Assembly (NCBI GenBank): GCA_021081985.1
Contig: GCA_021081985.1_3639.1
From: a phage
Strand: one strand, 5' to 3'
Length of the DNA: 64,000 nucleotides
In this document: positions 15,434 to 32,013 of the stretch, one piece after another
Layout: each line of letters begins with the position of its first letter
Position numbering within the stretch: the first letter of the stretch is position 1
Notes under the pieces: model-generated
What the model was told of the DNA's origin: nothing
The model's database searches: none
The model's input: only the letters and a program-made list of their open reading frames with translations
Translations under genes and position numbers: made by a program

Positions 15434-15461
15434 TTCCAAAACAAGCCCCTTATAAGGGGCT
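15434..15461 (-). terminator. palindromic hairpin, terminator-like (minus strand)
   Basis: AGCCCCTtataAGGGGCT with T-rich tract on the minus strand. Confidence 0.4.
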
Positions 15462-15482: not shown

Positions 15483-16172
15483 TTACACTTTAATAATCGG
15501 TTCAACAAAGGTAATTGGTTTCATAATTTTACCATTACCATCCATAAAGGCAACACGTTCACCGACCTGAACATGGATTACAGAATTATAACGTCCTTTT
15601 GAACGGCGTTCAATCTCTTTGCATTCAAACTCCAACATTTCTAGTTCTTTATCCTTGTAGTCAGGATATTTAACAAGCAGTTGTGTAATTGTTGGGAACT
15701 TAGAGTCGTTAGAATTAAGAACCTCTTCCATATTATACCCAAGATTGATATCCAATTTATAGCATAAAGCCACAACTTGTTTCAAAATCTCAGCATAATC
15801 AGAGATTTTCAACTTATCTTTATGTACCAAGTCAAGCAAACTACCGATTTGCAACTCAACCGTGTCTGAGGGAACCATGCATGACTCCCATTTTTCAGTG
15901 TCCCATTGCACCAAACGCAAAGCGTAAGAGCTTACGACAAAAAGATCACAGGCTGCATCAATAACCGCTGCCTTGTCGGATGATGATAAGGCTTCAATAA
16001 GCTCAGAAAGCTCCTCTTTAATAAGATTTGTTTGTAGTTTAATATCTGTTGACATTCCTCCACGACCAATCCTTGCTACCTCATTCCATTGGGCAACACG
16101 ATGACCATATGCAATCATGTTATCAGGCTTACTCATGGTTTCAAGTGTGGAATACATATTTTTTAAATTCAT
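15483..16172 (-). CDS. MazG-like nucleotide pyrophosphohydrolase (putative)
   Basis: IKEELSELIEALSSSDKAAVIDAACDL resembles the EExxE...D all-alpha NTP-PPase motif. Confidence 0.35.
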   Translation of the reverse strand: MNLKNMYSTLETMSKPDNMIAYGHRVAQWNEVARIGRGGMSTDIKLQTNLIKEELSELIEALSSSDKAAVIDAACDLFVVSSYALRLVQWDTEKWESCMVPSDTVELQIGSLLDLVHKDKLKISDYAEILKQVVALCYKLDINLGYNMEEVLNSNDSKFPTITQLLVKYPDYKDKELEMLEFECKEIERRSKGRYNSVIHVQVGERVAFMDGNGKIMKPITFVEPIIKV

Positions 16173-16181
16173 CTCTTCTCC

Positions 16182-16553
16182 TTAATTTACTGCATCTGGT
16201 ATATGATCACCATCTGGTTGATCACGAATTATTCTTAGAGGTAACAAAGCACCATTTTTTCCTGTGAACAGACATTTATCTGCATAGCTACCATTCTTGT
16301 ACCAAGAGTATGATGTATTAACTTTATAAGTCATACCATCAAACTGGCAAGCAACAGTGTTAATTATTGGCCTAATAAGACAAAATGTAAGGATACCAAT
16401 AACAACAAACCATGCGATAATAATCTTGCGAATATTTGGTTTTACCCAATCAATAAAATCATCTAATTTATCCCGTCTGAACCTATATGCCAGATACACA
16501 CATACAGAGAACAGTACAGTAGTCAGTAGAACGAACACCCAATACCAAATCAT
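16182..16553 (-). CDS. membrane protein
   Basis: 123 aa with two hydrophobic helices. Confidence 0.3.
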   Translation of the reverse strand: MIWYWVFVLLTTVLFSVCVYLAYRFRRDKLDDFIDWVKPNIRKIIIAWFVVIGILTFCLIRPIINTVACQFDGMTYKVNTSYSWYKNGSYADKCLFTGKNGALLPLRIIRDQPDGDHIPDAVN

Positions 16554-16565
16554 AATTATTAACCT

Positions 16566-17891
16566 TTAATATATAGGATCCCACGTCAAAGAATCTACCT
16601 CACGAACACATTTGCCAACAGGAAATTGCGGAACACCGTCATCGGTCCTTGCTTGGTATGTAAAAGTTATATACTTGCCGATAAGTTTTTTCATATTCTC
16701 TTGTGAGCGTTCTTCGTGTGTGCCTCTCATCTTACAGTTAAATTGTGTACCATCCTTCTCAGCACACAACAGGACACCTTCTCCATTCTTATCCTCAAAG
16801 GAATCAAGAACTCTGGCCTCACCATCCTGAAACAATTTCCACTTTTGAAGATCAGACGATCTTTGTCCAAACTCATACTTTCCGTGAAAGTTCCTTATTA
16901 CAACACCCTCATAACCTGCTTCCATAAACTCCTTGATGAGCATTTTAACACGATCCTCATCAGACACTATTGCTCCGTGCACTACTTTAATCAGGTTATA
17001 AGGCCATGTATACTCAGAGACTTTCTGTAAATTATTAAACCTACACTTGTCTGTGTCAGAAGACATCCATGGTGTGTCATCTTCCGAAGGTATATCGAAA
17101 ATATGATATTCTAAGTCTAAACTTGAATAACCACAATACTTATTAATATTTTTCTCTGGTTTCTTTGTGATAGGATGTTCTAACCCTTCGGAGTCTTTCC
17201 AAAACTCATCACCATTGTTAATTGCTTTTTCAAATCGCTTTATGTCTGATTGATAGTCTTTTTCTATCTCACATTCTATCTCTTCTGGTGTTCTCCATTT
17301 CTTAGCCAAAGAGACTATTTTCTGGAGACTTAACCCATGAATATACAACTCTCCATCAAACATTTTCAATCCTGTCTTTTTGGCTAGTTTAGACATCTGA
17401 TCAAGCAATTGGCCTTGTACAGGATATGTTTTATTGCCACGACTATTAAACACAGGCACGCCATCATCACCAACCAGAACAAGTGCTCTAACACCATCAA
17501 GTTTTGGTTGAACATGCAAAGGATACACTAAAGAACTTTTCCTTTTGATGGCATCATGTGCCAGCATTGGTGAGAAATCTTGGGTTTTTGTAAGATCATC
17601 CTTAGATACGCGATACCCAAGGCGTACTTGTTTTTCCCACTTAGATTTTGCCTCCAAAACAGCTTGTTCTGTATCAGTTGTCTCATTTTTCTTACCGATG
17701 TTTTTGGCAAAGCATTTTGTGCGTTTATACTGCATTTTACCGTTTTCTTTACCAAACTCAACAACAGTTTCTGATCCATCTGCCCACACATTCCACACTT
17801 GATATGTACCATCCCTGTTTAGGGCGTATAGTGTTGGAAGGTTATTTTCAAGCATTAAATACCTCGCTTGTGACAACAGGTTTTCCTTCAA
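16566..17891 (-). CDS. ATP-dependent DNA ligase
   Basis: Nucleotidyltransferase motif I KLDGVRAL (KxDGxR); 441 aa. Confidence 0.7.
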   Translation of the reverse strand: MKENLLSQARYLMLENNLPTLYALNRDGTYQVWNVWADGSETVVEFGKENGKMQYKRTKCFAKNIGKKNETTDTEQAVLEAKSKWEKQVRLGYRVSKDDLTKTQDFSPMLAHDAIKRKSSLVYPLHVQPKLDGVRALVLVGDDGVPVFNSRGNKTYPVQGQLLDQMSKLAKKTGLKMFDGELYIHGLSLQKIVSLAKKWRTPEEIECEIEKDYQSDIKRFEKAINNGDEFWKDSEGLEHPITKKPEKNINKYCGYSSLDLEYHIFDIPSEDDTPWMSSDTDKCRFNNLQKVSEYTWPYNLIKVVHGAIVSDEDRVKMLIKEFMEAGYEGVVIRNFHGKYEFGQRSSDLQKWKLFQDGEARVLDSFEDKNGEGVLLCAEKDGTQFNCKMRGTHEERSQENMKKLIGKYITFTYQARTDDGVPQFPVGKCVREVDSLTWDPIY

Positions 17892-18633
17892 GGTGATTTT
17901 CTACCAACTCAATAAGTTTTTGGTTGCTGAATGCTTCAACTGCTCCACAGCGCATTTGGTACACACCATATTTATCATACTGCTCTTGTTCAAAGTAATT
18001 GATCGCTGGGTTTATTACAACCAGTTTAATACCTCGTTTTGCGATTGCATGCAGCAATTCCCAGTTAAAGTCGATAACCTGATTAGAGCAGCCAACCAGA
18101 AGTACAAGATCTTGAGTATTCAAGTCATCAAGCATGGTAAACATGTCCTGATAAAGTGGTGCATTCTCACCGAAAAATACCACATTTGGCTTGCACCACC
18201 AGTAATCATCAGGGTCAACAACCGCATATCCGACATCAATCACACGTTTAGGAAACTCTTCACCATTCTGTACAACAAGCTCTTTGAGAAAACCATGTAC
18301 ATGGAGAATATCCTTCTTTTCAATGCCAGCACGTTCAAGCAGATCGTCAACGTTTGTTGTAAGATTACGTACTTGTCCAGGATAACGGTTATACCATTCT
18401 GCTACACGAAGATGTGCCATGTTGGGGTGCACAGTCTTCAATTCTTCACGGCGTTTGTTATAAAATTCGTGTGTTTTGTGGTAAAAATTACCACGAAATG
18501 CATGAATATTACATACTTCTTCAAGATCATATTCATCCCAAAGAGCTTTACCTGACGAAGTATCTGTACGGAATGTGCGAATACCGCTTTCTGTTGACAT
18601 ACCTGCACCACTAATCACAAGTAATCGACGCAT
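17848..18633 (-). CDS. Sir2-family (sirtuin-like) NAD-dependent protein
   Basis: GAGMSTESGIRTFR, TTNVDDL, HVHG, VVFFGE motifs; no CxxC...CxxC Zn ribbon seen. Confidence 0.65.
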   Translation of the reverse strand: MRRLLVISGAGMSTESGIRTFRTDTSSGKALWDEYDLEEVCNIHAFRGNFYHKTHEFYNKRREELKTVHPNMAHLRVAEWYNRYPGQVRNLTTNVDDLLERAGIEKKDILHVHGFLKELVVQNGEEFPKRVIDVGYAVVDPDDYWWCKPNVVFFGENAPLYQDMFTMLDDLNTQDLVLLVGCSNQVIDFNWELLHAIAKRGIKLVVINPAINYFEQEQYDKYGVYQMRCGAVEAFSNQKLIELVENHLEGKPVVTSEVFNA

Positions 18634-18641
18634 ATAACCAC

Positions 18642-19049
18642 CTATTGTAATTTTAAAGAGTTACGTAAACGTGCTTCTTGACGGTCACGAATAAACTGCG
18701 GGACATCATGAATGCTTTCGTTACCATGATAATTTTCCACAACTACAGATGTTACATCATAGCAGTAGTTTTCTGCTAAGTCAAGATAAGGTTTCAACTC
18801 TTTCGCAGAAGTTGTTGTGTTTGAAACAATAATCTTTTCAACTTCATTCTGCATGTGGAGTTCTACTTTGTCACGACACCATTGATGAGCTTTGTGGATA
18901 TTTTCTTCTTTCCACTCATACACACCGTCTTCGGTGTAATGAAATTGGTCAGCTTCACACACAGGCCAACGACCATCATCAGACAACTCTTTAGCAAGAG
19001 TTGATTTTCCTGACCCAGAGACACCACGTAAAATAAATAACTTTTTCAT
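18642..19049 (-). CDS. P-loop polynucleotide-kinase-like protein
   Basis: MKKLFILRGVSGSGKSTLA Walker A; 135 aa. Confidence 0.5.
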   Translation of the reverse strand: MKKLFILRGVSGSGKSTLAKELSDDGRWPVCEADQFHYTEDGVYEWKEENIHKAHQWCRDKVELHMQNEVEKIIVSNTTTSAKELKPYLDLAENYCYDVTSVVVENYHGNESIHDVPQFIRDRQEARLRNSLKLQ

Positions 19050-19059
19050 TAGTTTTCCT

Positions 19060-19392
19060 TTAGTATTGGTGACGATAAAACTTTATACCTAAAGTGTTTT
19101 CGAAATATTCTCTCGCCAACATAAACTTGTTCACGGCAGATGGGTTAGAGCTATGTACGTGAATCTCTTTAAGATTCGTAAACTTACCATCATGAAGCTC
19201 ACGTTCAATATAGATGAAAGCATCGTAACCTTCCTCATCACCACCCAAATCATTATCAAAATGGATGGAATCAATGTCGCTATCACTCATAAATTTTAGT
19301 AATGAGTAGAAGCTAGAGAGATTCTTACACCATAAGGCATTAGGGTATCCATAATCTACTGGATTTCGCAGATCATCCAACCACAGTTTCAA
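19060..19392 (-). CDS. conserved hypothetical protein (MKLWLDDLRNP...FDNDLGG motif)
   Basis: 110-aa ORF between the kinase-like and ligase-like genes; family not assigned. Confidence 0.3.
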   Translation of the reverse strand: MKLWLDDLRNPVDYGYPNALWCKNLSSFYSLLKFMSDSDIDSIHFDNDLGGDEEGYDAFIYIERELHDGKFTNLKEIHVHSSNPSAVNKFMLAREYFENTLGIKFYRHQY

Positions 19393-20321
19393 ATTGTACC
19401 TCCGAAAAAATCCTCAATAATTTCACGACGGAATTGTTCATGCAAACATTCCCAATGTTCTTTAGAATAGTTATCACGCAAATAGTTTAAAAGGTTATAA
19501 TACTCTTCGTCAACTTTCTTCTTAGCTTCTTCTGGGTTTCCCCAAATCATATCCCACTTGTTCTTACCGCCACGCATCAAAAATTTCTTCGCCAAATAGT
19601 GTGGTGATTTTATCTTCAAGAGAAGATCTTGCTGTCCTGTAGCAGCACGTACAACAAACCCTTCATGTTTGCATTCTTTAGACATTTTCAGGATGTCTGA
19701 AAAGTGCATATTTATGTAAGTCTCTGGTCGTTTAAAACCGAACTCTTTTGCGATAAGATCCAGAGCTTTTTCACTAAGCATAGAAGTTAATTTGTCTTTA
19801 TGAAATCGAACACCAATCAAATACACACCTGCCTTTTCTGGTACAATGTGTGGGTCTGAAGGAGCGCAAATCTCAAAGATAAATGTTGTCTTTGGTTCTT
19901 CCACACATGATAACAACATTGGCAAATTAGTACATTCTTCCATGATCATACCTTTTGCAAGTTTTGCAAAATCGGAATCTAGAGTTCCTGTTGTTGAAAC
20001 AATTAGCTCACCATTGTATGAGCTTACTGCTGCCATGAAGCCATTAACTTTACGTGCTGCATTCACAACCATATCTTTTGGAAGATCAGTACCGTTCTCT
20101 AAATGATTGAAAATCTTGGTAAAAGGCCACACAACGATGTTGTCATCACTGTCCACAACCATACCACGGCAATCAAGTAAGCGACTGTCTTGATCCCACA
20201 AGTTTTCCCAAAAAACTTTGTTACTGTATTTCAAAACAGACAAACCTTTAAACTCACCACTGGTATAAGTCTTCTTTTTGACAAGGCCTTTTGATACTAA
20301 ATCTTCAACATTGAATTTCAT
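19389..20321 (-). CDS. RNA ligase-like nucleotidyltransferase (putative)
   Basis: KVNGFM motif I-like lysine nucleotidyltransferase signature; 310 aa. Confidence 0.45.
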   Translation of the reverse strand: MKFNVEDLVSKGLVKKKTYTSGEFKGLSVLKYSNKVFWENLWDQDSRLLDCRGMVVDSDDNIVVWPFTKIFNHLENGTDLPKDMVVNAARKVNGFMAAVSSYNGELIVSTTGTLDSDFAKLAKGMIMEECTNLPMLLSCVEEPKTTFIFEICAPSDPHIVPEKAGVYLIGVRFHKDKLTSMLSEKALDLIAKEFGFKRPETYINMHFSDILKMSKECKHEGFVVRAATGQQDLLLKIKSPHYLAKKFLMRGGKNKWDMIWGNPEEAKKKVDEEYYNLLNYLRDNYSKEHWECLHEQFRREIIEDFFGGTI

Positions 20322-20518
20322 TTGTCTTCACCGTCACTATTGTATGATTGTTTATTAAATGACTCAATTATACATGTTGATCGTCTTGCGTCAACAGATT
20401 GGCTTGTTAAATCTTTAGCAACAACTAGTTTTTCCACATCATCTTTTTTGATGGATCCGTAAGCACCAGAATCCATCATGAAGAATATTTTATCTTCTGT
20501 TATCTTGTGTATTTTCAT
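20318..20518 (-). CDS. hypothetical protein
   Basis: 66-aa ORF. Confidence 0.25.
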   Translation of the reverse strand: MKIHKITEDKIFFMMDSGAYGSIKKDDVEKLVVAKDLTSQSVDARRSTCIIESFNKQSYNSDGEDK

Positions 20519-20539
20519 TCATAAAATCTCAATAATTAT

Positions 20540-21118
20540 TCAATGGCCATCAGCAGTGAAAACGTCTTTTTCCATACACATTTGGTATGCTTCTGGCAGA
20601 CCCAAAATTCTCCCATGTACATCCCAACCAACATCAAGAATCCGTCCTTTCGCACTGTAAGATCCGTGACTGTGCCCATGCAAGAACACAGACCCATAGT
20701 GAGATTTATTCCACGCGGCAAACGGGTAATGACTCATACAAATTTTTTGTTCATAATCGTTAAATTCGTAATAATCGCACACATCATGACCACGTTTTTT
20801 GAATGTTTTAATCGCATCAAAATTGTCATGATTACCTTTGACAAGGACGATATGCCCAACAAGTTCATCAAGAATTTCTTCAAGTCTTTTAATAACTTGC
20901 TTGCCACGACCAAAACAAAAATCACCAAGCACAAAAGTCACAGTATCGGCATCTGCGCCGTGGTTAAATTTCACTGTGAGGTCTTGGTTCATTTGTTCAA
21001 CGGTTTTGTACAAATCACCACGAAAACGTTTTGAACTCTCAAAGTTCAGGATGTTTTTATGCCAGTAATGTAAATCAGATGTTACACGGTATTTGGTTCC
21101 CATTTCTCTCTCCCTCAC
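20540..21118 (-). CDS. calcineurin-like metallophosphoesterase
   Basis: DLH, GDF, GNHD and GHSH metal-binding motifs in order. Confidence 0.7.
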   Translation of the reverse strand: MREREMGTKYRVTSDLHYWHKNILNFESSKRFRGDLYKTVEQMNQDLTVKFNHGADADTVTFVLGDFCFGRGKQVIKRLEEILDELVGHIVLVKGNHDNFDAIKTFKKRGHDVCDYYEFNDYEQKICMSHYPFAAWNKSHYGSVFLHGHSHGSYSAKGRILDVGWDVHGRILGLPEAYQMCMEKDVFTADGH

Positions 21119-21128: not shown

Positions 21129-21566
21129 TCACTGTCGCTCTAACAAATCTTCTGCTGGATAAGCATACAGCATGTATTCCCAACCACGATGGTAATGTCT
21201 GTGTTGCCAGTTGATTAATTTTAGACACACAATGTTCACCACGTTCCTGTCCCCATGGATAAAAACACAAGTCTCAAGGATTGACTTTCCAAACTCAACA
21301 TGACTGTCAAGATACAGTTTTGTGTTGTATCTTTTTTCAGCATCCAGCATGATCTGTTTCAAGGCCAGAAATGCCTCGCAACACACAGATTTTTCATCAG
21401 AAATCATTTTGATATTCAAGCATTCACCCCCACACAGGCAACCACGCAAATCGTGTCTGATCACCACAACACAATCGGTTTGAAACAAACCTGTTTGACA
21501 CACAACAGGCATCGTCGTAGTGTCATGCCTAAACACAGACAGATATGATACGACGAAGATCCCCAC
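21129..21566 (-). CDS. Cys/His-rich hypothetical protein (first gene of the minus-strand block)
   Basis: 145-aa ORF; several Cys and an HRHYH stretch. Confidence 0.3.
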   Translation of the reverse strand: MGIFVVSYLSVFRHDTTTMPVVCQTGLFQTDCVVVIRHDLRGCLCGGECLNIKMISDEKSVCCEAFLALKQIMLDAEKRYNTKLYLDSHVEFGKSILETCVFIHGDRNVVNIVCLKLINWQHRHYHRGWEYMLYAYPAEDLLERQ

Positions 21567-22122: not shown

Positions 22123-22548
22123 GTGGGGTTATGGGTAGCATTCTCGGTGTTGGATTACACACCGGAGTTTGCCTTGAAATCTAATGTTGGGGGTTTCCAT
22201 GTAAATCCGAAAGCTGGGTCATACATCGCTGTCCCGACAGAGTGGGTTTTTGATGAACGGTTATCACCAAGCGATCTGCAAAGATTGATACGCTTGTTGT
22301 GGAGATACGAGTATTTCAAGAATCTGAACCCTCTGGGTGGGGAACTGGTATTCTTTCCGTCACAACAATCCTTGTGTGGCCTGTTGGGGTGGAATGAAAA
22401 CTCACGAACCAAAGTGTCTGAATTTCTGTCTCGGATGGAGAGCTTTGGTTATATCAGGCGTGTTAGATCAGGATTTCAGGATTCTGATGGTAACGTGAAA
22501 CCAAGAAATTATATTATCGTCAATCGTATCAGAGGGGATAAATCATGA
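22123..22548 (+). CDS. putative winged-helix DNA-binding protein (start uncertain)
   Basis: 141-aa ORF from GTG; LIRLLWRYEYF...GYIRRVR helix-rich segment; track start lies inside promoter-like sequence so a downstream TTG near 22174 may be the real start. Confidence 0.3.
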   Translation: MGLWVAFSVLDYTPEFALKSNVGGFHVNPKAGSYIAVPTEWVFDERLSPSDLQRLIRLLWRYEYFKNLNPLGGELVFFPSQQSLCGLLGWNENSRTKVSEFLSRMESFGYIRRVRSGFQDSDGNVKPRNYIIVNRIRGDKS

Positions 22549-23354
22549 ATATTCGTTTGAGTTTGAACAAGCTACATGTGCCAGTTGACCATTTCACATT
22601 TAGTGGTGGTGAGGAGCAGATTAAGATCGATATGCGTCATGTTCCGCATGGTTCGATAGGTTTTGTTGATATCTTCGCTAGACTCAAGAACTCACAGGAT
22701 GTGATGTGTTTGGCACTGCTTGTTGATGCAGTTAATCGTCTTGGCAATTTGGATGTTGGTGTGGAAAAGGTTTTACACCTGCCGTACATTCCGTATGCTC
22801 GACAAGACCGAGTTATGAACCCTGGAGAATCTCTGTCGGTGAAAGTCTTTGCCACAATGATTAACTCGCTTGGTTTCCACAAAGTCATCGTCGATGATCC
22901 ACACAGTGACGTATCCGCAGCACTGATTGATAACGTGAAAATTCGTTCTCAGACTGATTTGTTCTTGAACATGAATTTTGATTTTGATCTGCTTACGGAC
23001 GAATCGCTTGTGTTGGTTGCTCCAGATGCAGGTGCACGCAAGAAGACCCAGAAGGTTGCTGATACCTTGGAACTATCTGTGGTTGAAGCAGGTAAAATCC
23101 GTGATGTGGGAACAGGGGCAATCACAGGCACAACAGTGTTTGGTGATGTTGGTGGGAAGACATGCCTGATTGTCGATGATATCTGCGATGGTGGGTTTAC
23201 GTTTACAAACTTAGCTCAAGCCTTGAAAGCTGCTGGTGCAAAACGTGTTATTTTGTATGTTACGCATGGAATTTTCTCTCGTGGGAAAGAATTTATTCTC
23301 GACGGTGGTGTTGACGAAATTTATGCATACTACGACTGGACAGAAAATTTTTAA
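22545..23354 (+). CDS. ribose-phosphate pyrophosphokinase (PRPP synthetase) family protein
   Basis: LPYIPYARQDR, VLVAPDAGA and LIVDDICDGGFT motifs. Confidence 0.8.
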   Translation: MNIRLSLNKLHVPVDHFTFSGGEEQIKIDMRHVPHGSIGFVDIFARLKNSQDVMCLALLVDAVNRLGNLDVGVEKVLHLPYIPYARQDRVMNPGESLSVKVFATMINSLGFHKVIVDDPHSDVSAALIDNVKIRSQTDLFLNMNFDFDLLTDESLVLVAPDAGARKKTQKVADTLELSVVEAGKIRDVGTGAITGTTVFGDVGGKTCLIVDDICDGGFTFTNLAQALKAAGAKRVILYVTHGIFSRGKEFILDGGVDEIYAYYDWTENF

Positions 23355-23418
23355 GTTGGTATTGACAAAGATACGTTTTAGTGAAAAAATACGTTTTTAG
23401 GATTGGAGGGTTGAGATC

Positions 23419-25134
23419 ATGCTTCACAAAGAAAGTCCATTGCTGTTTGCAGATTTTTATAAACCAAGTCACATCTCGATGTACGACAAACGTTCACAGT
23501 TTGTTCAAGACAACATGACACCACGCAATGCGAAACACTTTGTACACTTTGCAGATGATGACCATCGTGTAATGTTTGCTGGTCTTCAGGGATTTATCAA
23601 GTGGTTCCTGATTGACATGTTTAATAATAATTTCTTTGCTTTACCGAAAGAAAAGGCGATTCAGGATTACAAAGAGATTTGTGATTTGAGCATTGGGAAG
23701 GATGCTGTTGAAACTTGGGGTTTTGAGAGATTGCATGATCTTGGATATCTCCCAATTGAAATTAGAGCTTTGCCTGAAGGAACTCTTGTTCCTGTTCAGG
23801 TTCCTATGTTCACGATTCAGAACACGCACCCTGATTTTTACTGGCTGCCAAACTTCCTTGAGAGCGTGATCTCCTCGGAGACTTGGAAGACAATTACCAC
23901 GGCAACGACTTTCTGGCAATATCGTAAACTATCAGAACTGTGGGCAAAGAAAACATGTGATAACAACGATCACGTTCCTTTCCAGAACCATTGTTTTGCA
24001 TACCGTGGTGAAGCTGGAACACATGACGCAGCACAGAGCGAATTTGGGCAACTGATTAGCTCAATGGGCACAGATACAATTCCAGCGATTGTTTACGCAA
24101 ATCGCTATTACAACATGAAAGGTCGCTTTGTTGCTGGGTCTATTCCCGCATCTGAGCATAGCGTAGCGACAACGAACATTGGTTTTATTGTTGAGCGTAT
24201 CCAGCAGGAAAATCCTGACATGTCGCTTGCTGAAGCACGTTTTCGTGCTGAAGTTGAGTTCTTAAAGCGTTATGCAACAGAGATTTTTCCGTCAGGCTAT
24301 GCTTCATACGTCGCAGACAGCTATGATTTTTGGGCAATCATTACACAAGCAGCCAAAATCCTGAAAGATGAGATTATGTCTCGTGATGGCAAGCTGGTCT
24401 TCCGACCGGACAGTGGGATCCCAGAGCACATCATTGCTGGCTATCGTGTGTGCTCTCAGGAAGAATGGGCAACGGGACAGTGCTGTGATATGGATGCTGT
24501 GCTGTTTAAAAATGGCAAATATGTCACTCTGTACGAGATGTCCAGAGACACTTCTTGGATGCGAGATTCGGAAGGCAACCTCGTAGATTGGAAATCTTTG
24601 ACAGGTGATGAATTTACAAATTATCTTACCAAAGAGGAGGTTAAGGGTGCTGTACAATGCTTGTGGGAAATCTTTGGTGGTAGTGTAAACTCTTTGGGTT
24701 ACAAAGTTCTTGATAGCCATGTTGGTTTAATCTACGGAGACTCTATCACAATCTCTCGTGCTAAAGAGATCTTTGAGCGCCTTGAAGAACGAGGCTTTGC
24801 TTCCAGCAACATTGTGTTTGGTGTAGGATCTTATACAACGCAATATACAACCCGTGATTCTCTTGGGATGGCTGTAAAAGCTACTGGTGCTGTGATTGAT
24901 GGCAGACAAGTAATGGTTGTAAAAGAGCCTAAGACTGATCTTGGGAAGAAATCTGCGAAAGGTTTTGTTAAAGTTATTCGTGGTGATGATGGTGAGTTGA
25001 AGCTGGTAGATAATCTTGGTATTAATCAGGTATCTGACCCTGACAACGAGCTTAGAACAGTTTTTGTTAATGGTAAGCTGCTTGTGGATGAGGATCTTGA
25101 AGAAATTCGTCAAAGAGCTTTGTCACAGCTTTAG
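23419..25134 (+). CDS. nicotinamide phosphoribosyltransferase (NAMPT/NadV) family protein
   Basis: 571 aa; N-terminal LLFADFYKPSHISMY and overall NAMPT-like pattern; GGAGGG RBS. Confidence 0.8.
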   Translation: MLHKESPLLFADFYKPSHISMYDKRSQFVQDNMTPRNAKHFVHFADDDHRVMFAGLQGFIKWFLIDMFNNNFFALPKEKAIQDYKEICDLSIGKDAVETWGFERLHDLGYLPIEIRALPEGTLVPVQVPMFTIQNTHPDFYWLPNFLESVISSETWKTITTATTFWQYRKLSELWAKKTCDNNDHVPFQNHCFAYRGEAGTHDAAQSEFGQLISSMGTDTIPAIVYANRYYNMKGRFVAGSIPASEHSVATTNIGFIVERIQQENPDMSLAEARFRAEVEFLKRYATEIFPSGYASYVADSYDFWAIITQAAKILKDEIMSRDGKLVFRPDSGIPEHIIAGYRVCSQEEWATGQCCDMDAVLFKNGKYVTLYEMSRDTSWMRDSEGNLVDWKSLTGDEFTNYLTKEEVKGAVQCLWEIFGGSVNSLGYKVLDSHVGLIYGDSITISRAKEIFERLEERGFASSNIVFGVGSYTTQYTTRDSLGMAVKATGAVIDGRQVMVVKEPKTDLGKKSAKGFVKVIRGDDGELKLVDNLGINQVSDPDNELRTVFVNGKLLVDEDLEEIRQRALSQL

Positions 25135-26045: not shown

Positions 26046-26121
26046 GGCCCCTTAGCTCAGTGGTTAGAGCAGGTGACTCATAATCGCTTGGTCGCTGGTT
26101 AAAGTCCAGCAGGGGCCACCA
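26046..26121 (+). tRNA. tRNA-Met (anticodon CAT; could also be Ile2 or initiator)
   Basis: Manual cloverleaf: acceptor GGCCCCT/AGGGGCC, D-arm GCTC..GAGC, anticodon loop cTCATaa, T-arm GCTGG..CCAGC, encoded CCA. Confidence 0.75.
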
Positions 26122-26173
26122 AATGTGGCACACGAAATAAACTAGGTTTATTGTTTTCGGAGGAGAAAACTTA

Positions 26174-26497
26174 ATGGCTAAGAAACAGTCTGCTAAAAAG
26201 GTATCAGCTATCGAGGCGATCAAGCAACCTTTTCAGTTTGAATCAAAATCCACGCAGACACATTCTGCACCGCACGATGTGCGTCTTGGTGGCAAAACGC
26301 AAACTGTAGCAGTTCTGAAAAAACGCAAAGATGAAGACGGTAATACTGAAATGTATTATGAATCTGTGTCTCGTGTCATTGGTGGTGAAGTGATTTCTGC
26401 TTCCTATCGTATCCGTACTGGGAAAACAAAGCGTGAACGAGAAGTGAAACAGAAAACAAGCACTCCTGTAGGAAACGTTAAGAAAACTAAAAAATAA
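26174..26497 (+). CDS. hypothetical basic protein
   Basis: 107 aa, Lys-rich; GGAGGAG RBS. Confidence 0.35.
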   Translation: MAKKQSAKKVSAIEAIKQPFQFESKSTQTHSAPHDVRLGGKTQTVAVLKKRKDEDGNTEMYYESVSRVIGGEVISASYRIRTGKTKREREVKQKTSTPVGNVKKTKK

Positions 26498-26573
26498 TTT
26501 ACTGACGAGAGTGCCACCGTGAGCCAGCGTCATTAAACAAAGGGAATCACGGACATTCAGGAGGGTTGAGATT

Positions 26574-26765
26574 ATGATAGGATCTTTGCTTAAGATTGCA
26601 AGCGATGTAACAACAACGGCTGTTGAAGTGACTGCTGCGGTAACAACTCCGTTTGTTGATTTAGCATCAGATGCTATAGCAGCAGCAGACGAGATGATTT
26701 TGTCACCGACATCTGATCTTGTCCAAGATCTTTGTGATTCTATAAAAGATGCTGTAAAAGATTAA
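26574..26765 (+). CDS. hypothetical small acidic protein
   Basis: 63 aa; AGGAGGG RBS. Confidence 0.3.
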   Translation: MIGSLLKIASDVTTTAVEVTAAVTTPFVDLASDAIAAADEMILSPTSDLVQDLCDSIKDAVKD

Positions 26766-26773
26766 AATTTTTC

Positions 26774-26802
26774 TTGACATAGTTTTTGTTTTTCTGTATA
26801 GT
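26774..26802 (+). promoter_or_regulatory. sigma70-like promoter (TTGACA-17-TATAGT)
   Basis: TTGACAtagtttttgtttttctgTATAGT upstream of the ORF at 26839. Confidence 0.5.
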
Positions 26803-26838
26803 TACTTTATCAAAGCTAATTTACATAGGAGAGATTGA

Positions 26839-27486
26839 ATGTCTACTAAGATTTCCGTAACTCGTGCACTTGCTTCTATCTCTAAGATTGAAGATAAGAT
26901 CAATAAGCGCATTTATAACCTTGAATGTATTAAGATTGCAAAAGGAACTGAGAATAATTGTAAGATTCCTGGTTATATCGGCTCTGTTGATGATTTTAAG
27001 AAATCTGCGATCAACGACTATCAAAGTCTGCAAGACCTCTTGGCAGTTCGCGATGAACTGAAGGCAAAAATTGTCAAGTCTAATGCTGAGACAATTGTCA
27101 AAATTGGTAAGGTGTCTATGACAGTTGCTGAGGCAATCGAACGCAAACGGACGATTTGCTTTAAACAAGAGTTGTTAAACAAACTTTGTGCACAGCGTGC
27201 TTCTGCACAGCTTCTTCTGGCAAAAGAAGAAAAATCTCTGGAAGATAAACTTGAAAATGCCAGAGCGCCATATATCCAACGTGATAAAGCGCCAGATGCA
27301 GAGCAGATTAAGACTGTGGAAGCTCCCATTCGAATGATGAACACACCATCGGTTGTGGATCCTCTTGAACTGGCTTCTAAGATTCGTTCTCTTGAAGAAG
27401 AGATTGAAGATTTCTTGTCTAACGTTGATTTTGCGTTGTCTGAGTCAAACGCTAAGACAGAAATTGAGATTGAGCACTCTCTCTAA
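26839..27486 (+). CDS. hypothetical coiled-coil protein
   Basis: 215 aa; heptad-like charged stretches; AGGAGAG RBS. Confidence 0.4.
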   Translation: MSTKISVTRALASISKIEDKINKRIYNLECIKIAKGTENNCKIPGYIGSVDDFKKSAINDYQSLQDLLAVRDELKAKIVKSNAETIVKIGKVSMTVAEAIERKRTICFKQELLNKLCAQRASAQLLLAKEEKSLEDKLENARAPYIQRDKAPDAEQIKTVEAPIRMMNTPSVVDPLELASKIRSLEEEIEDFLSNVDFALSESNAKTEIEIEHSL

Positions 27487-27520
27487 AAGGCTCTGATAAT
27501 ATCATTATCGTTCCTTTGTT

Positions 27521-27733
27521 TTGAAATTTAAAACATTGCTTTTGATTAACGAAGTTTACATCATCTTGCCTCCTGGGGATTGGAGGTTAAATATTCCCCA
27601 CCATGTATCGTATATGTATGAGGATAATACAGAACATAGATGCAGCGAGGCACACGAAGATGCTTTGTTGTTTCCACTAAGTAAAAGTTCATACAATAAA
27701 GGTCAATGGTTAAATGTGAAAGATGAAACTTGA
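27521..27733 (+). CDS. hypothetical protein
   Basis: 70-aa ORF. Confidence 0.25.
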   Translation: MKFKTLLLINEVYIILPPGDWRLNIPHHVSYMYEDNTEHRCSEAHEDALLFPLSKSSYNKGQWLNVKDET

Positions 27734-27851
27734 AAGTTGACTCTTGAAAGATAAAATTTCGTTTATCATCTGAAATCCTTGACACAGGTTATGGCTCACA
27801 AGATATGGTCTGTAAAGCCTCAAGGCTGTTAATCGGAAGCAATGTCTTATT

Positions 27852-27926
27852 GCTCGTATAGCTCAACGGTAGAGCACCTGCCTTGTAAGCAGGGGGTTGC
27901 AGGTTCGAAACCTGCTGCGAGCACCA
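27852..27926 (+). tRNA. tRNA-Thr (anticodon TGT)
   Basis: Acceptor GCTCGTA/TGCGAGC, D-arm GCTC..GAGC, loop cTTGTaa, T-arm GCAGG-TTCGAAA-CCTGC, CCA encoded. Confidence 0.75.
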
Positions 27927-27928
27927 AT

Positions 27929-28025
27929 GCTGGGTAAGCCCTTTGGCAAGGGCGAGGATTTATAATCCTGAAAATAGACGGGCTAGCCGTTGAATACATA
28001 GGTGGTTCGATTCCATCACCCAGCC
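27929..28025 (+). ncRNA. atypical tRNA-like element (97 nt; intact acceptor, D- and T-arms, aberrant anticodon region)
   Basis: Acceptor GCTGGGT/ACCCAGC, D-arm GCCC..GGGC, T-arm GGTGG-TTCGATT-CCATC, but about 46 nt between D- and T-arms with two hairpins and no encoded CCA. Confidence 0.3.
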
Positions 28026-28226
28026 ACAAGTTTGTTTTATAGTGTATTAGCTTATATTATTCGATATAAATGCCTGATCAGCATTTGTTGTGAATGAGGC
28101 ATACAATGCGTGAGAAAGCTATCGGTGCGCAACGTTGATTTCAAACGTAGTCATGCTCGTAGAGCACCAACTGTGGAAGTTGGAGGGTGGTTGAGTAACC
28201 ATACACTATAAAGCATTCTTTAAAAT

Positions 28227-28311
28227 GGGCGGTGTCCCCACACAAGTCTTCTAAACTTGTACTTAAAAAGTGGGAAGGAAGTGAGAGGTTCGATTCCTCC
28301 ACCGTCTACCA
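28227..28311 (+). ncRNA. atypical tRNA-like element (T-arm, acceptor and CTTCTAA anticodon-like hairpin but no D-arm)
   Basis: GGTTCGATTCC T-loop, acceptor GGGCGGT/ACCGTCT plus ACCA, hairpin CAAGT-cttctaa-ACTTG; does not fold as a canonical cloverleaf by hand. Confidence 0.3.
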
Positions 28312-28387
28312 GATTAACCCCAACTTGAGAATCGTCAGCGCGGCTCGTAAGACCCACTCTATAGGTTCTCTACCTGGGGTGCTTATT

Positions 28388-28464
28388 GCACGGTTGCCGG
28401 AATTTGGTTACGGGTCTGTCTGCAAAACGGATATATGTCGGTTCAAGTCCGACACCGTGCTCCA
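28388..28464 (+). tRNA. tRNA-Cys (anticodon GCA)
   Basis: Acceptor GCACGGT/ACCGTGC, loop cTGCAaa, T-arm GTCGG-TTCAAGT-CCGAC, CCA encoded. Confidence 0.7.
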
Positions 28465-28501
28465 AACTTTCAATTTCTTGGCAAATATGTTAAAATACCA
28501 C

Positions 28502-28530
28502 TTGACAGATATGTTTTTATTTGATAATAT
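28502..28530 (+). promoter_or_regulatory. sigma70-like promoter (TTGACA-17-TAATAT)
   Basis: TTGACAgatatgtttttatttgaTAATAT upstream of ATG 28551. Confidence 0.45.
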
Positions 28531-28550
28531 CATTAAGTGGGGTTTTTAAA

Positions 28551-28898
28551 ATGGCTACTAAGCAGCTTACAAAACGTAGAAGAGGAAAAGGTCGTCCTCT
28601 GAAAGAGGAATCTAATGCAATTCAGTTAGAGAAAAATATCCTAGATTTGAAAACGAATCTGATTGCAATGATTCCTGAAGCTCATCAGGTTCTTAGGGAT
28701 TTGATGAAGAATGTGAATACAAAAGACAATATCAGAGAAAATATCGCTCGTTATGTTATTGAGAAAGGTGAGCAGATGCTTTCTGATTACTTTGATGAGG
28801 AAAACGAAGAGTTACTCGAAAAAGATAACTCAGAAAAAGCGCCTATTAAGGCAGCCAAACCATTCTCGACGGATATTGTTCAATTCAAACAAGGTTAA
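28551..28898 (+). CDS. hypothetical protein (start at internal ATG of track ORF 28521..28898)
   Basis: MATKQLTKRRRGKGRP...; promoter-like element immediately upstream. Confidence 0.35.
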   Translation: MATKQLTKRRRGKGRPLKEESNAIQLEKNILDLKTNLIAMIPEAHQVLRDLMKNVNTKDNIRENIARYVIEKGEQMLSDYFDEENEELLEKDNSEKAPIKAAKPFSTDIVQFKQG

Positions 28899-28899
28899 T

Positions 28900-28989
28900 G
28901 TGTCGTTAGACCGTAGGGGTAGCGGGGGAGACTGTAAATCTCCTGTCTCGAAAGGGACTCGGGTAGTTCGACTCTATCACGGCACACCA
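28900..28989 (+). tRNA. tRNA-Tyr (anticodon GTA), long variable arm
   Basis: Acceptor GTGTCGT/ACGGCAC, loop cTGTAaa, variable-arm hairpin GTCTC-gaaa-GGGAC, T-arm GGTAG-TTCGACT-CTATC, CCA encoded. Confidence 0.7.
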
Positions 28990-29057
28990 ACTAAATCTGT
29001 ACTGGCTTTGATGTGTGACGATACCCTCCAATCGTGGTTGTTGGGTCAGTACAGTTT

Positions 29058-29133
29058 GGGAGTGTAGATCAGTTAGTAGATCGCTCGACCGATAATCGAG
29101 AGGACGTAGGGGCAGAGCCTACCACTCCCACCA
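29058..29133 (+). tRNA. tRNA-Ile-like (anticodon GAT) with non-canonical T-loop and C33; possibly degenerate
   Basis: Acceptor GGGAGTG/CACTCCC, D-arm GATC..GATC, loop ccGATaa, T-arm GTAGG-GGCAGAG-CCTAC. Confidence 0.4.
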
Positions 29134-29138
29134 AATAT

Positions 29139-29213
29139 GCATCCATAGTTTAATTGGGAAAACTACAGCCTTCCAAGCTGAAGTCGAGGGTTCGATGCCC
29201 TCTGGATGCTCCA
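29139..29213 (+). tRNA. tRNA-Gly (anticodon TCC)
   Basis: Acceptor GCATCCA/TGGATGC, D-arm GTTT..AAAC, loop cTTCCaa, T-arm GAGGG-TTCGATG-CCCTC, CCA encoded. Confidence 0.65.
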
Positions 29214-29338
29214 GTTAAAAGATGTCAATGAAATCCGCTTGGGTCAACTGAAGACCGTAACAAATTCCATGGGGTTGTGTTTGCGGTCCAACCCTAGACA
29301 TCTTCTATCTTTAGTAGAAGGCTTTAATACGGACGAGT

Positions 29339-29569
29339 ATGATGGTTTCTAAATTAATCATAACAAGGCATCATAATGCTAAAGAAATAGAGATTGTGAA
29401 TGCTGCTGGCACTCTTGTGCTAAAAGTTGGTAAAGACTGTCCTTTTGAATTGTGCCAGAAGGAACTTTTAAGTTTGTGCGGTTTCAGGTTTAAACAGATT
29501 ATCTTTGAAAATGCTTTTCAATATTCAGACTTAAACCAGTACATTATATCTAGGCTTGATCCTGCATGA
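29339..29569 (+). CDS. hypothetical protein embedded in tRNA array
   Basis: 76-aa ORF. Confidence 0.3.
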   Translation: MMVSKLIITRHHNAKEIEIVNAAGTLVLKVGKDCPFELCQKELLSLCGFRFKQIIFENAFQYSDLNQYIISRLDPA

Positions 29570-30123
29570 GATACTTGAAATATTTATCTTGGATCCTGTT
29601 AGCACCTCTTGATCCAATTATGTCGGCTCTCTGTGTTATTCTGGCTCCTTTTGTTGTTCCGTTCTATAATGAGAAGACAGGGCATCTACCCTATATTTTC
29701 AGGTGGATGGAAACATATGATAATCCTATAGACGGTGACAGAGGACACATAGAGAGATGGGAAGAAGTCCGTAAAATAGGAAGTTTTGGTGTTTACCTAC
29801 AACGAGTTGCTTGGTTGTGGAGAAATAAAGCCTACAATTTTTCCTATCACGTACTTGGACGTGAAATCGCATCTGTGACAAAGTGGAAAGGAAACATCCA
29901 TGTAAGCTCTGATGTGGAGGATAATCAACAAGGCTATTTGTTGATGTGGAATGACAATGCGTGGGGTGTATTCGCGTTTGTCCCGTCTTTTAGATTGTTT
30001 GGAAAACAATTTTACTGGCGAATTTATGTCGGTTGGAAACTGAAGAGTGTGGTTCCTGAAGACAGAGCTTTTTCAAGAGAGAGGGTGATGTTGGCATTTT
30101 TCATAAGTCCTTTCCGAAAATAG
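29566..30123 (+). CDS. hypothetical protein (hydrophobic N-terminus, Trp-rich) embedded in tRNA array
   Basis: 185-aa ORF, ATGA overlap with upstream ORF. Confidence 0.4.
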   Translation: MRYLKYLSWILLAPLDPIMSALCVILAPFVVPFYNEKTGHLPYIFRWMETYDNPIDGDRGHIERWEEVRKIGSFGVYLQRVAWLWRNKAYNFSYHVLGREIASVTKWKGNIHVSSDVEDNQQGYLLMWNDNAWGVFAFVPSFRLFGKQFYWRIYVGWKLKSVVPEDRAFSRERVMLAFFISPFRK

Positions 30124-30129
30124 TTTTTA

Positions 30130-30211
30130 ATGAGAGTAGCGTAACTTCACTGGGTGAAGGCTGGCCTCCAAAACCAGTGACTAAGAGGTTCGATTCCTCA
30201 CTCTCGTGCCA
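30130..30211 (+). tRNA. tRNA-like gene, possible tRNA-Trp (anticodon CCA), irregular D-region
   Basis: Acceptor ATGAGAG/CTCTCGT, loop cTCCAaa, T-loop TTCGATT, CCA encoded; D-region forms a tight 6-bp hairpin instead of a normal D-arm. Confidence 0.35.
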
Positions 30212-30212
30212 A

Positions 30213-30288
30213 AGGGGATTAGCATAGTGGCCTAATGCAACGGGCTTTGACCCCGTGATCGGTTGTTCGAATCAACCATCCCCTGCCA
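30213..30288 (+). tRNA. tRNA-Gln (anticodon TTG)
   Basis: Acceptor AGGGGAT/ATCCCCT, D-arm GCAT..ATGC, loop cTTTGac, T-arm GGTTG-TTCGAAT-CAACC, CCA. Confidence 0.75.
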
Positions 30289-30297
30289 AGTTAAAAC

Positions 30298-30387
30298 GGA
30301 GAAGCAAATCGATTGGCGACGAAACCACATTGGAAATGTGCTGACTGGTAAAACGGCTTGAGAGTTCGATTCTCTCCTTCTCCACCA
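30298..30387 (+). tRNA. tRNA-Ser (anticodon GGA), type II
   Basis: Acceptor GGAGAAG/CTTCTCC, loop tTGGAaa, T-arm GAGAG-TTCGATT-CTCTC, CCA; variable arm pairs weakly. Confidence 0.5.
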
Positions 30388-30401
30388 GTTTTTAAGGATT
30401 T

Positions 30402-31145
30402 ATGTATGCACTCTCCCCAAGAAAAAAAAATGGAAAACAGATATTTAATTTGTTGAAAAGCGGAAAAGGCTTCTCAAACCCGCTTCAATCAGGTCTTTCT
30501 CTGGTTGGTGGTAAAGTAAGTAGTCTATCTTCTTTATCTTCCTCTATTTCTTCGGTAACTAACCCAGCTATAAAGGCTCAATTAGCTGCCGCAGGTTTGA
30601 CAACTGGCGTTTTATCAAATTTTACTTCGTCTCTTGGTTCTGTTACAAGCACGACAAAAACGCTTGTTGATTATGGTCAGAAATCTGTTGAAGAGTTCTC
30701 CCAAAGAATGCACGCAGCGAGTAATTATATGAGTACTCTGAGCAGAATGGGAGAAAAGACAAGTTGTTCAATATTTAGTGACGTTATGTCTGTAGCCACT
30801 GATTTAGGTAAGAAAGCTATGGATGCCGTTAATTCCGCGATGGATGCGGTGAACGATGTTATGTCTCAATTGCAAGATGCAATAAATAAGGGTTTGAATA
30901 CAATATCTAGTTTGGCGAGTAAAGCTGTCTCAGCGATAAACAAAGGGATCCAGAAAATGTCTGAGTATGCTAGCCAAGTGACAAAGATGATTGAAGATGA
31001 AGCAAAGAAGTTGGCAGACTACTTAAAGACAAGTGCTGAAGGATTTCTCGCAGATATCCTACCTGATTGGTTTAACGATTCTTGTAAATCTGGTATAGTT
31101 GACCAGATTGCTACACCAGAGATGAAAGAAGTTCTTAAAAAGTAA
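30402..31145 (+). CDS. hypothetical Ser/Thr-rich helical protein embedded in tRNA array
   Basis: 247-aa ORF between tRNA genes; start may be internal. Confidence 0.4.
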   Translation: MYALSPRKKNGKQIFNLLKSGKGFSNPLQSGLSLVGGKVSSLSSLSSSISSVTNPAIKAQLAAAGLTTGVLSNFTSSLGSVTSTTKTLVDYGQKSVEEFSQRMHAASNYMSTLSRMGEKTSCSIFSDVMSVATDLGKKAMDAVNSAMDAVNDVMSQLQDAINKGLNTISSLASKAVSAINKGIQKMSEYASQVTKMIEDEAKKLADYLKTSAEGFLADILPDWFNDSCKSGIVDQIATPEMKEVLKK

Positions 31146-31147
31146 TT

Positions 31148-31241
31148 GGAAGATTAACCCTAATTTGGTAAGGGGTCTCCCTGCTAAGGAGATAGTAACC
31201 CAGAAATGGGTGTGCCAGTTCAAGTCTGGCATCTTCCTCCA
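31148..31241 (+). tRNA. tRNA-Ser (anticodon GCT), type II
   Basis: Acceptor GGAAGAT/ATCTTCC, loop cTGCTaa, variable-arm hairpin ACCCA-gaaa-TGGGT, T-arm GCCAG-TTCAAGT-CTGGC, CCA. Confidence 0.65.
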
Positions 31242-31320
31242 CTGTATGTCAAGGCTCAGATTTCTTCGGACCTGGGCGTTCGCCTTTGTTGGGTGTATAT
31301 TCTCGGCAGAGGCTATCTTT

Positions 31321-31409
31321 GGAGGCTGGGGTGCATGGTGCACAAGCTGGTTTGAACCCAGTCCCGCTGTAGAGATATGGTGACAGTTCGATTCTGTCAG
31401 CCTCCTCCA
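31321..31409 (+). tRNA. tRNA-Ser (anticodon TGA), type II
   Basis: Acceptor GGAGGCT/AGCCTCC, loop tTTGAac, T-arm GACAG-TTCGATT-CTGTC, CCA. Confidence 0.6.
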
Positions 31410-31709: not shown

Positions 31710-31718
31710 AAATATTCA

Positions 31719-31809: not shown

Positions 31810-31893
31810 ATTCTTGACTTAATCAAGTCACAGATATCACCTAGCCAGCGATACCAGTTAGTAGATTCTGGGACAATTAAAATCTACATTTCT

Positions 31894-31971: not shown

Positions 31972-32013
31972 ATAAACATATACATATCAAAGCAGAAATG
32001 TACAGAGGATACC

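Follow-up and report, generated by a model that had tools for sequence, protein, structure and literature searches.

The question raised by positions 18642–21118 of a 64,000-nucleotide stretch of phage DNA (NCBI GenBank assembly GCA_021081985.1, contig GCA_021081985.1_3639.1; the whole stretch is hereafter called the window) is whether the small genes encoded there constitute a pathway that mends broken RNA. An initial inspection of the letters alone (hereafter the sequence-only reading) described a kinase, a KxNG ligase-like protein, and a calcineurin-type phosphoesterase clustered with two small open reading frames (ORFs) on one strand. This description was borne out: five minus-strand genes are packed head to tail, and their ORF limits coincide exactly with these coordinates. 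Judged by their Pfam and PHROG matches, all five are real genes and not chance ORFs. The window belongs to an Escherichia myophage of the Vequintavirinae group, and the region is 95% identical to that of phage vB_EcoM_TH18 (TH18), in whose annotation all genes of the region are termed "hypothetical protein" except Sir2 and a DNA ligase. The cassette is probably a split pathway for the healing and sealing of RNA breaks, sharing its chemistry with T4 Pnk/Rnl1 and bacterial Pnkp, and it would most likely mend tRNAs cut by bacterial defence nucleases. Direct support exists for the family and fold assignments, the intact catalytic residues, the packing of the operon, and the adjacency and co-distribution of the core genes, which are described below.

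The 310-residue protein encoded at 19389–20321 (Rnl; motif K91-V-N-G94) is identified, by its sequence profile and modelled fold, as an ATP-dependent RNA ligase of the Rnl1 (T4 RnlA/Trl1-LIG) clade. The protein matches RNA_lig_T4_1 in Pfam (PF09511; 66.5 bits against a cutoff of 28.3, E = 4e-18) and phrog_562 (3.6e-66). Single-sequence phmmer searches of the PDB with the ligase and with the kinase returned nothing useful, and family profiles were needed for both. The ligase profile, built from 33 homologues (50–99% identity), matched T4 Rnl1 (2C5U, 9DO4) at 3.5e-11 over residues 48–239, i.e., the whole nucleotidyltransferase domain, and the only other ligase that it matched in the PDB was archaeal Rnl3 (E = 0.34). 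Ten residues are invariant in the family, R52, K69, F71, K91, G94, E150, E220, G221, K236, and K238, and these align with R54, K75, F77, K99, G102, E159, E227, G228, K240, and K242 of T4 Rnl1, respectively. They account for 10 of the 11 residues of T4 Rnl1 that are reported to be essential in the mutagenesis literature (work of the Shuman laboratory), including Lys99, the adenylylated nucleophile. The motif I lysine, motifs III, IV, and V, and the equivalents of the Rnl1-specific Arg54, Lys75, and Phe77 are all retained. The AlphaFold2 (AF2) model of the ligase has a predicted local distance difference test (pLDDT) score of 91, and its ten best Foldseek matches are all Trl1-LIG or T4 Rnl1 structures (E = 4e-13 to 2e-11, TMq 0.59–0.69). 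At the top, Trl1-LIG (9QW7, 6N0T, 8RBJ) and T4 Rnl1 (5TT6, 2C5U, 9DO4) are essentially tied (4e-13 to 1e-11), and weaker matches were obtained with Rnl3 (1e-10 to 1e-6), Rnl5 and Rnl2 (at least 6e-6), and DNA ligases (at least 1.8e-5). With lengths of about 300–320 residues, the family is a distinct, shorter subfamily of the clade.

The kinase (Kin; 18642–19049) comprises 135 residues, about the minimum for a P-loop kinase, and carries the P-loop GVSGSGKST. It matches AAA_33 in Pfam (9.4e-10), phrog_2071 (1.5e-52), and phrog_505, labelled "polynucleotide kinase" (4.4e-11). In the PDB, the kinase profile, built from 41 homologues, matched best the kinase domain of Clostridium thermocellum Pnkp (CthPnkp; 4GP7/4JST) at 1.7e-11, followed by Pnkp1 of the Pnkp1-Rnl-Hen1 complex (4XRP; 5e-10), T4 Pnk (1LY1/1LTQ; 2e-9 to 5e-9), and the tRNA-dependent kinase PSTK (5e-8), and the matches to gluconate, nicotinamide riboside, adenylate, and uridine kinases, with E values of at least 4e-5, were confined to the P-loop. 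G9, G12, G14, K15, and D34 are invariant among the 41 homologues, and D34 aligns to the general-base Asp38 of CthPnkp, whose counterpart in T4 Pnk is Asp35. The family additionally has a conserved ENRHGN...H-VP segment of its own (ENYHGNESIHDVP in the window) and arginines near the C terminus. By this ranking, the protein is assigned to the AAA_33/polynucleotide-kinase clade and grouped with polynucleotide kinases, not with nucleotide or metabolite kinases, and we propose that it is an RNA 5′-OH kinase.

The third enzyme, encoded at 20540–21103, is a calcineurin-type metallophosphoesterase (MPE) of 187 residues when read from its ATG, which is the start in the TH18 annotation and is more likely than an alternative GTG at 21118 that would give 192 residues. 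It matches Metallophos in Pfam (PF00149; 33.7 bits against a cutoff of 21.5, E = 6.4e-8) and phrog_547 (9.2e-45), and the metal-ligand motifs DxH, GD, GNH, H, GH, and GHxH are all present. Homologues from nine phage lineages share only 32–42% identity and retain every one of these motifs; the invariant residues of the alignment are D10, H12, G60-D61, G90-N91-H92, H125, G143-H144, and H146 (numbered from the ATG). From these motifs, the protein clearly appears to be an active binuclear phosphoesterase, and the genomic context suggests a specificity for RNA ends; its proposed role is that of the 3′-end healing enzyme, which would remove a 2′,3′-cyclic, 3′, or 2′ phosphate. The family assignments of all three enzymes in the sequence-only reading therefore hold in profile searches and, for the ligase, in fold comparison. 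Two identities named in advance as incompatible with RNA repair were rejected. The 310-residue protein is not a DNA ligase or capping enzyme, as both its fold and its profile are those of Rnl1 and a true DNA ligase is encoded at 16566–17891; the 135-residue protein is not a nucleotide kinase, as its profile ranks polynucleotide kinases first and a deoxynucleoside monophosphate kinase is encoded separately at 8455–9063.

Both small ORFs of the sequence-only reading are real genes, although one of them encodes a cREC domain, which that reading had missed. This 110-residue protein (19060–19392; TTG start) matches cREC_REC, the "cyclic-phosphate processing receiver domain" (PF20274; 7.6e-16). A word-indexed search gave six homologous proteins, and an exhaustive search of representatives gave 339 cluster representatives. 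D6, D7, D48, L49, and H80 are invariant, and R9, D46, G50, G55, E63, and N83 nearly so. The protein is modelled with a pLDDT of 97 as a receiver (CheY-like) fold with an invariant acidic pocket, and the family profile found no solved sequence relative in the PDB. The cREC family was defined in 2021 by the Aravind group, who described its linkage to RNA ligases (PMC7824862), and it is predicted to hydrolyse 2′,3′-cyclic RNA ends or 1″-2″-cyclic ADP-ribose phosphate (PMC9503650, PMC7824862). The window protein is a predicted metal-independent 2′,3′-cyclic phosphodiesterase; literature searches turned up no experimental work on cREC or on this type of cassette. The other small ORF (20318–20518; 66 residues), whose stop overlaps the ligase start, matches phrog_20147 (1.1e-17) and has no Pfam match. 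It was seen in TH18, a close relative, and in no other of the compared loci, which makes it lineage-specific and a probable accessory gene.

Conservation of the cassette was assessed in nine loci fetched around ligase homologues from eight phage lineages, whose ORFs were searched with the window proteins. The loci are those of TH18 and BP9 (Vequintavirinae), phi92 (Stephanstirmvirinae), phiA047 (Plateaulakevirus), phiPsa374 (Otagovirus), PaoP5 (Pakpunavirus), the unclassified Vibrio phage pv27, Chester (Thalassavirus), and HB01 (Saclayvirus). In all nine, no more than about 2 kb separates MPE, Rnl, and Kin from one another, at ligase identities down to 34%. The cREC gene was found in TH18, phi92, and BP9 only, a Sir2 gene, which in the window follows the kinase, in TH18 and BP9 only, and MazG-like homologues near the cassette in TH18, phi92, and BP9. 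Retention of the trio in every locus, and of cREC and Sir2 in few, indicates that the functional core is MPE + Rnl + Kin, to which individual lineages have added cREC, Sir2, and MazG. In the phiPsa374, PaoP5, and Chester loci, a gene annotated as "metal-dependent phosphohydrolase" lies near the trio (7729–8199, 6474–7034, and 1996–2457 in the respective locus); the annotation suggests the HD type, and its product may be an end-processing partner in lineages devoid of cREC.

Of 50,697 phage records, the ligase has matches in 737, the kinase in 617, MPE in 1345, cREC in 367, and Sir2 in 1006. By host genus, ligase and kinase are distributed almost identically: Escherichia 199/198, Pseudomonas 175/173, Klebsiella 36/36, Acinetobacter 24/24, Campylobacter 23/23, Salmonella 14/14, and Aeromonas 13/13. 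In enterobacterial phages, cREC follows the ligase (Escherichia, 216 vs. 199; Klebsiella, 39 vs. 36). T5-like phages, which are absent from the ligase matches, have close Sir2 homologues as well.

From these data, we infer what the substrates are (RNA or tRNA), in which order the steps proceed, and what the biological trigger is, as follows. Metal-independent endoribonucleases of the host or of a competitor, e.g., anticodon nucleases, would leave 2′,3′-cyclic-phosphate and 5′-OH ends. MPE, possibly after opening of the cyclic phosphate by cREC, would convert the 3′ end into 3′-OH/2′-OH, and the P-loop kinase would phosphorylate the 5′-OH with ATP. The Rnl1-type ligase would then self-adenylylate on K91, pass the AMP to the 5′-phosphate, and seal the break. 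tRNA is suggested as the substrate because of the Rnl1/Trl1 affinity of the ligase, the precedent of T4 and PrrC, and the neighbouring tRNA array. This array, also noted in the sequence-only reading, comprises 14 tRNA genes at 26046–32377 on the plus strand, 5 kb from the cassette.

Several observations weigh against healing and sealing as the function of the cassette. For the ligase, the equivalent of T4 Lys119 is an invariant Thr111 (segment S109-T110-T111-G112), the score against the T4 RnlA equivalog model (NCBIfam TIGR02308) is 25.2 bits against a cutoff of 242, and T4 Rnl1 has an additional, non-catalytic role in tail-fibre attachment. For the kinase, the acceptor-binding arginine (T4 Arg38/CthPnkp Arg41) is absent, the aligned position being variable (H, F, M, V), and there is no clear lid RxxxR motif (T4 Arg126; RxxxR in CthPnkp); with this arginine missing and a family-specific lid, acceptor binding is not simply inherited from T4 Pnk. 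For MPE, the sole strong solved relative in the profile search of the PDB is the uncharacterised Aquifex protein aq_1665 (1XM7; 4.4e-19), followed by GpdQ and Rv0805 at about 0.01, and no Pnkp or lambda phosphatase chain was matched at E ≤ 0.1; the MPE family, moreover, occurs in about twice as many phage records as the ligase family. Literature searches on this type of cassette brought up neither biochemical nor genetic evidence for any of its members. Finally, the trio often adjoins NAD-reconstitution genes, so that a role in nucleotide or ADP-ribose (ADPR) metabolism is conceivable.

The cassette is part of a longer operon, which extends from about 21566 to 15483 on the minus strand. The orf66/ligase and ligase/cREC junctions are start/stop overlaps (ATGA and TTGA, respectively), and the remaining intergenic gaps in the five-gene cassette are 8–21 nucleotides, as expected for one operon. 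The unit begins after a divergent intergenic region near 21.6–22.1 kb, where the GC skew flips sign. Its first ORF (21129–21566; 145 residues as listed, ~124 residues in TH18) matches phrog_7684 (1.8e-34) and has no Pfam match; in the rV5-like phage BP9, its homologue adjoins MazG. Directly downstream of the kinase lies Sir2 (17848–18633), a CobB-like class III sirtuin of 261 residues, followed by an ATP-dependent DNA ligase (16566–17891; PF01068, 9.3e-15, and PF14743, 1.6e-10; phrog_114, 2.1e-83), which belongs to the context of the transcription unit and lies outside RNA repair. A small membrane ORF separates the DNA ligase from the last gene of the unit, which encodes a MazG-like nucleotide pyrophosphohydrolase (15483–16172; PRA-PH, 7.1e-6; phrog_671, 6.1e-24). 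Only after this gene was a terminator found, a bidirectional terminator-like hairpin at 15444–15461; a promoter scan was uninformative (29 sites against 27.9 expected). Divergent from the operon, at 22545–25134 on the plus strand, a Prs-like gene (PF14572/PF13793/PF00156) precedes a Nampt-like gene (PF04095, weak PF18127), a pair with the domain composition of the phage NAD+ reconstitution pathway NARP1 (Adps + Namat).

Sir2 matches PF02146 (6.4e-26), phrog_2162 (6.2e-101), and Escherichia coli CobB (1S5P; 3.4e-19). Alignment with the CobB motifs GAGxSxESGIxTFR, TxNxD, and HxHG shows that the NAD pocket and catalytic histidine are intact and that the zinc-cysteine segment of CobB is not conserved. 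The closest phage homologues (59–69% identity) are found in T5-like and Salmonella phages, compared with 51% for the Sir2 of rV5, which suggests gene exchange between phage groups. Sir2 may carry out the proposed Tpt1/KptA-like removal of a 2′-phosphate or may be an unrelated deacylase.

The continuation of the cassette into Sir2, DNA ligase, and MazG was missed by the sequence-only reading, as was the fact that the arrangement is already published. A V5-type, sirtuin-centred RNA-repair neighbourhood was predicted in silico by Iyer, Burroughs, Anantharaman, and Aravind (2022; Viruses 14:1977, section 3.7.3; PMC9503650), with Escherichia phage V5 and Proteus phage Mydo as prototypes and with a sirtuin, a T4-like tRNA ligase, cREC, a nucleotide kinase, a pyrophosphatase of the MazG superfamily, and an "occasional" calcineurin-like phosphoesterase as components. 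All six are present in the window on one strand within 15483–21118, and the cassette is hence a further example of a kind already known from computational prediction. The window phage is a member of the same subfamily, Vequintavirinae, and the Mydo kinase is 60% identical to Kin. In the rV5-like BP9, kinase and MPE are divergent from ligase-cREC-Sir2-MazG, whereas the window genes are collinear, with the DNA ligase and membrane ORF inserted; the window Sir2 is, furthermore, closer to its T5-like homologues than to that of rV5. Three points extend slightly beyond the published description: the enzyme that constantly accompanies ligase and kinase in the lineages compared is the calcineurin-like one, rather than the sirtuin or cREC; the "nucleotide kinase" is placed by its profile specifically among the RNA-repair polynucleotide kinases, without their acceptor arginine; and the cREC protein is modelled as a receiver fold with its invariant acidic pocket.

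Healing-and-sealing systems of known function provide additional comparisons. T4 Pnk and Rnl1, which counter the anticodon nuclease PrrC, share the three chemical activities predicted for the cassette. The T4 system is likewise phage-encoded, and T4 is known to carry tRNA genes too; the window ligase is of the Rnl1 clade as well and retains nearly all catalytic residues of T4 Rnl1, and Kin is related to the kinase domain of T4 Pnk. However, the T4 kinase is fused to a HAD/DxD-type 3′-phosphatase, whereas Kin stands alone beside an unrelated binuclear metallophosphoesterase; the window ligase is 64 residues shorter than T4 Rnl1, with a shorter C-terminal helical domain; and T4 lacks the extra partners cREC, Sir2, and MazG. 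The bacterial Pnkp systems (Pnkp/Hen1 and Pnkp1-Rnl-Hen1) likewise combine a P-loop polynucleotide kinase, a calcineurin-type metallophosphoesterase, and an ATP-dependent ligase, although Pnkp is a single polypeptide and the three activities in the window reside on separate ORFs. The scan of ten operon-region proteins revealed neither Hen1 nor another methyltransferase domain. The window ligase is of the Rnl1 type, and Pnkp/Pnkp1-associated ligase modules are absent from the sequence and fold matches listed, with no direct comparison made; between the window MPE and the phosphatase domain of Pnkp, no sequence match was detectable.

The affinity of the ligase for Trl1 and the presence of Sir2 call for consideration of a yeast/plant-type (Trl1/Tpt1-like) route instead of the T4-type pathway, which we consider unlikely. 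In such a route, cREC would open the cyclic phosphate to 3′-OH/2′-PO4, Kin would phosphorylate the 5′ end, and Rnl would seal the break, leaving a junction 2′-phosphate that Sir2 would transfer to NAD+; MPE and/or cREC would process the resulting ADP-ribose cyclic phosphate, and the Adps/Namat-like pair would rebuild NAD+. In fold, the ligase model is no further from fungal Trl1-LIG than from T4 Rnl1, and motif I of Trl1 is KxNG, as in the window ligase. Like that of fungal and plant Trl1 + Tpt1, the pathway would include a kinase and an activity that opens cyclic phosphates, and an NAD-using enzyme is adjacent, Sir2 with its intact NAD pocket and catalytic histidine lying immediately downstream of the kinase; the NARP1-like pair lies divergently upstream. 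The replacement of Tpt1/KptA by a sirtuin has, moreover, been hypothesized for V5-type neighbourhoods (PMC9503650). Nevertheless, six of the nine loci, from five lineages, have the MPE-Rnl-Kin core without detectable cREC or Sir2 nearby, so the ligase cannot generally depend on either. Its sequence profile matches T4 Rnl1 and no Trl1 chain, and Sir2 homologues of about 60% identity occur in the T5-like phages, which are not among the ligase matches. Trl1 is a single trifunctional protein, whereas no such protein is encoded here; the candidate cyclic phosphodiesterase is the REC-fold cREC and not a 2H enzyme, and neither 2H nor Tpt1/KptA genes were seen among the ORFs scanned. No sirtuin is known to possess 2′-phosphotransferase activity. 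Furthermore, the presence of an MPE that could strip phosphates off completely favours a route through a 2′-OH over one of the Trl1/Tpt1 type.

A full NAD+-coupled RNA repair circuit, formed by the operon together with its divergent neighbour, is quite unlikely. In this circuit, cREC would open the cyclic phosphate, Rnl would seal, and the zinc-less sirtuin would remove the junction 2′-phosphate by ADP-ribosyl transfer, after which MPE, cREC, and the Adps/Namat-like pair would recycle the by-product and nicotinamide to NAD+. If true, a sirtuin would for the first time be seen to act as an analogue of Tpt1, and eukaryote-style tRNA ligation would have been re-invented in a phage from unrelated folds.

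It is more doubtful still that some or all of MPE, cREC, and Kin act on small molecules derived from NAD or ADPR, e.g., in converting ADPR-cyclic-phosphate or ADPR-1″-phosphate to ADPR, and thereby extend NAD+ reconstitution, with the ligase as the sole true RNA enzyme or otherwise employed. Six of the ten genomes compared (window, phi92, phiPsa374, PaoP5, Chester, and HB01) have the Prs-like and Nampt-like pair next to the trio, MPE weakly matches 2′,3′-cyclic nucleotide monophosphate phosphodiesterases, and ADPR-cyclic-phosphate is a side product of NARP1. NARP1 operons recruit extra phosphatases such as Adpp (bioRxiv 10.64898/2026.01.28.702374), and cREC is predicted to act also on 1″-2″ cyclic ADPR phosphate (PMC9503650). 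The kinase, however, speaks against such a function: its profile matches polynucleotide/tRNA kinases at 2e-11 vs. nicotinamide riboside kinase at 2.7e-4 (P-loop only), and it co-distributes with the RNA ligase and not with the broader Prs-like gene (1500 records, including Staphylococcus and Mycobacterium phages). Additionally, phiA047, pv27, and BP9 have the trio without the NAD pair nearby.

Finally, it is highly improbable that these are unrelated early or auxiliary genes, syntenic by shared descent, with the ligase serving mainly as a virion-assembly (tail-fibre attachment) factor like T4 gp63: the PHROG label of the ligase family, "RNA ligase and tail fiber protein attachment catalyst", hints at such a role, several of the compared myovirus lineages may share ancestry, and the DNA ligase and nucleotide-metabolism genes are syntenic too, but adjacency is kept with varied gene order across very different lineages, including the siphovirus-type Thalassavirus and Saclayvirus, catalytic residues are invariant in all three enzymes, and the cassette sits in the early replication/nucleotide-metabolism arm, away from structural genes.

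Both the concept of RNA healing and sealing in phages and the gene neighbourhood were already known, and the window presents a compact, collinear version of the cassette, which is found in several hundred sequenced phages, as reflected in the ligase and kinase counts given above. If functional as a split healing-and-sealing pathway, it would allow the phage to reseal tRNAs or other RNAs that abortive-infection nucleases have cut and would thereby add a second counter-defence to the 14 tRNA genes. With its stand-alone 135-residue kinase, uncharacterised MPE subfamily, and cREC protein, the cassette offers a set of four or five small proteins for direct tests of the published hypotheses of cREC as a REC-fold cyclic phosphodiesterase and of the sirtuin as a Tpt1 counterpart.

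Elsewhere in the window, the tRNA array includes Lys-UUU, Tyr, Asn, and Gln, isoacceptor types hit by known anticodon nucleases, and it is interleaved with conserved ORFs, namely, phrog_3330 (28521–28898), DUF7338 (29566–30123), and DUF7217 (30402–31145). The "CCA-adding-like enzyme" of the sequence-only reading, a 479-residue ORF at 32828–34267 (plus strand) right after the array, could not be confirmed as such: only a weak match to the nucleotidyltransferase family phrog_1614 (4.7e-5) was obtained, with no Pfam or PDB match. The ORF has a Pol-beta-like "AGGAITS...NDLDLYF" motif, from which it could be a divergent CCA-adding or RNA-ligase-associated nucleotidyltransferase. At 35051–36397 (plus strand), one stop-to-stop frame combines a PhoH-like match (residues 7–365) with the N-terminal part only of a large terminase (residues 323–447); possibly two genes overlap here, or the terminase gene is split further downstream by an intron or homing element. 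On the minus strand, the large subunit of ribonucleotide reductase (1930–4653; 907 residues) matches its family at residues 1–433 and 528–905, with an insert of about 95 residues between them, and a thymidylate synthase ORF of 628 residues (5456–7342) matches ThyA at residues 346–626 only, with a large unexplained N-terminal extension.

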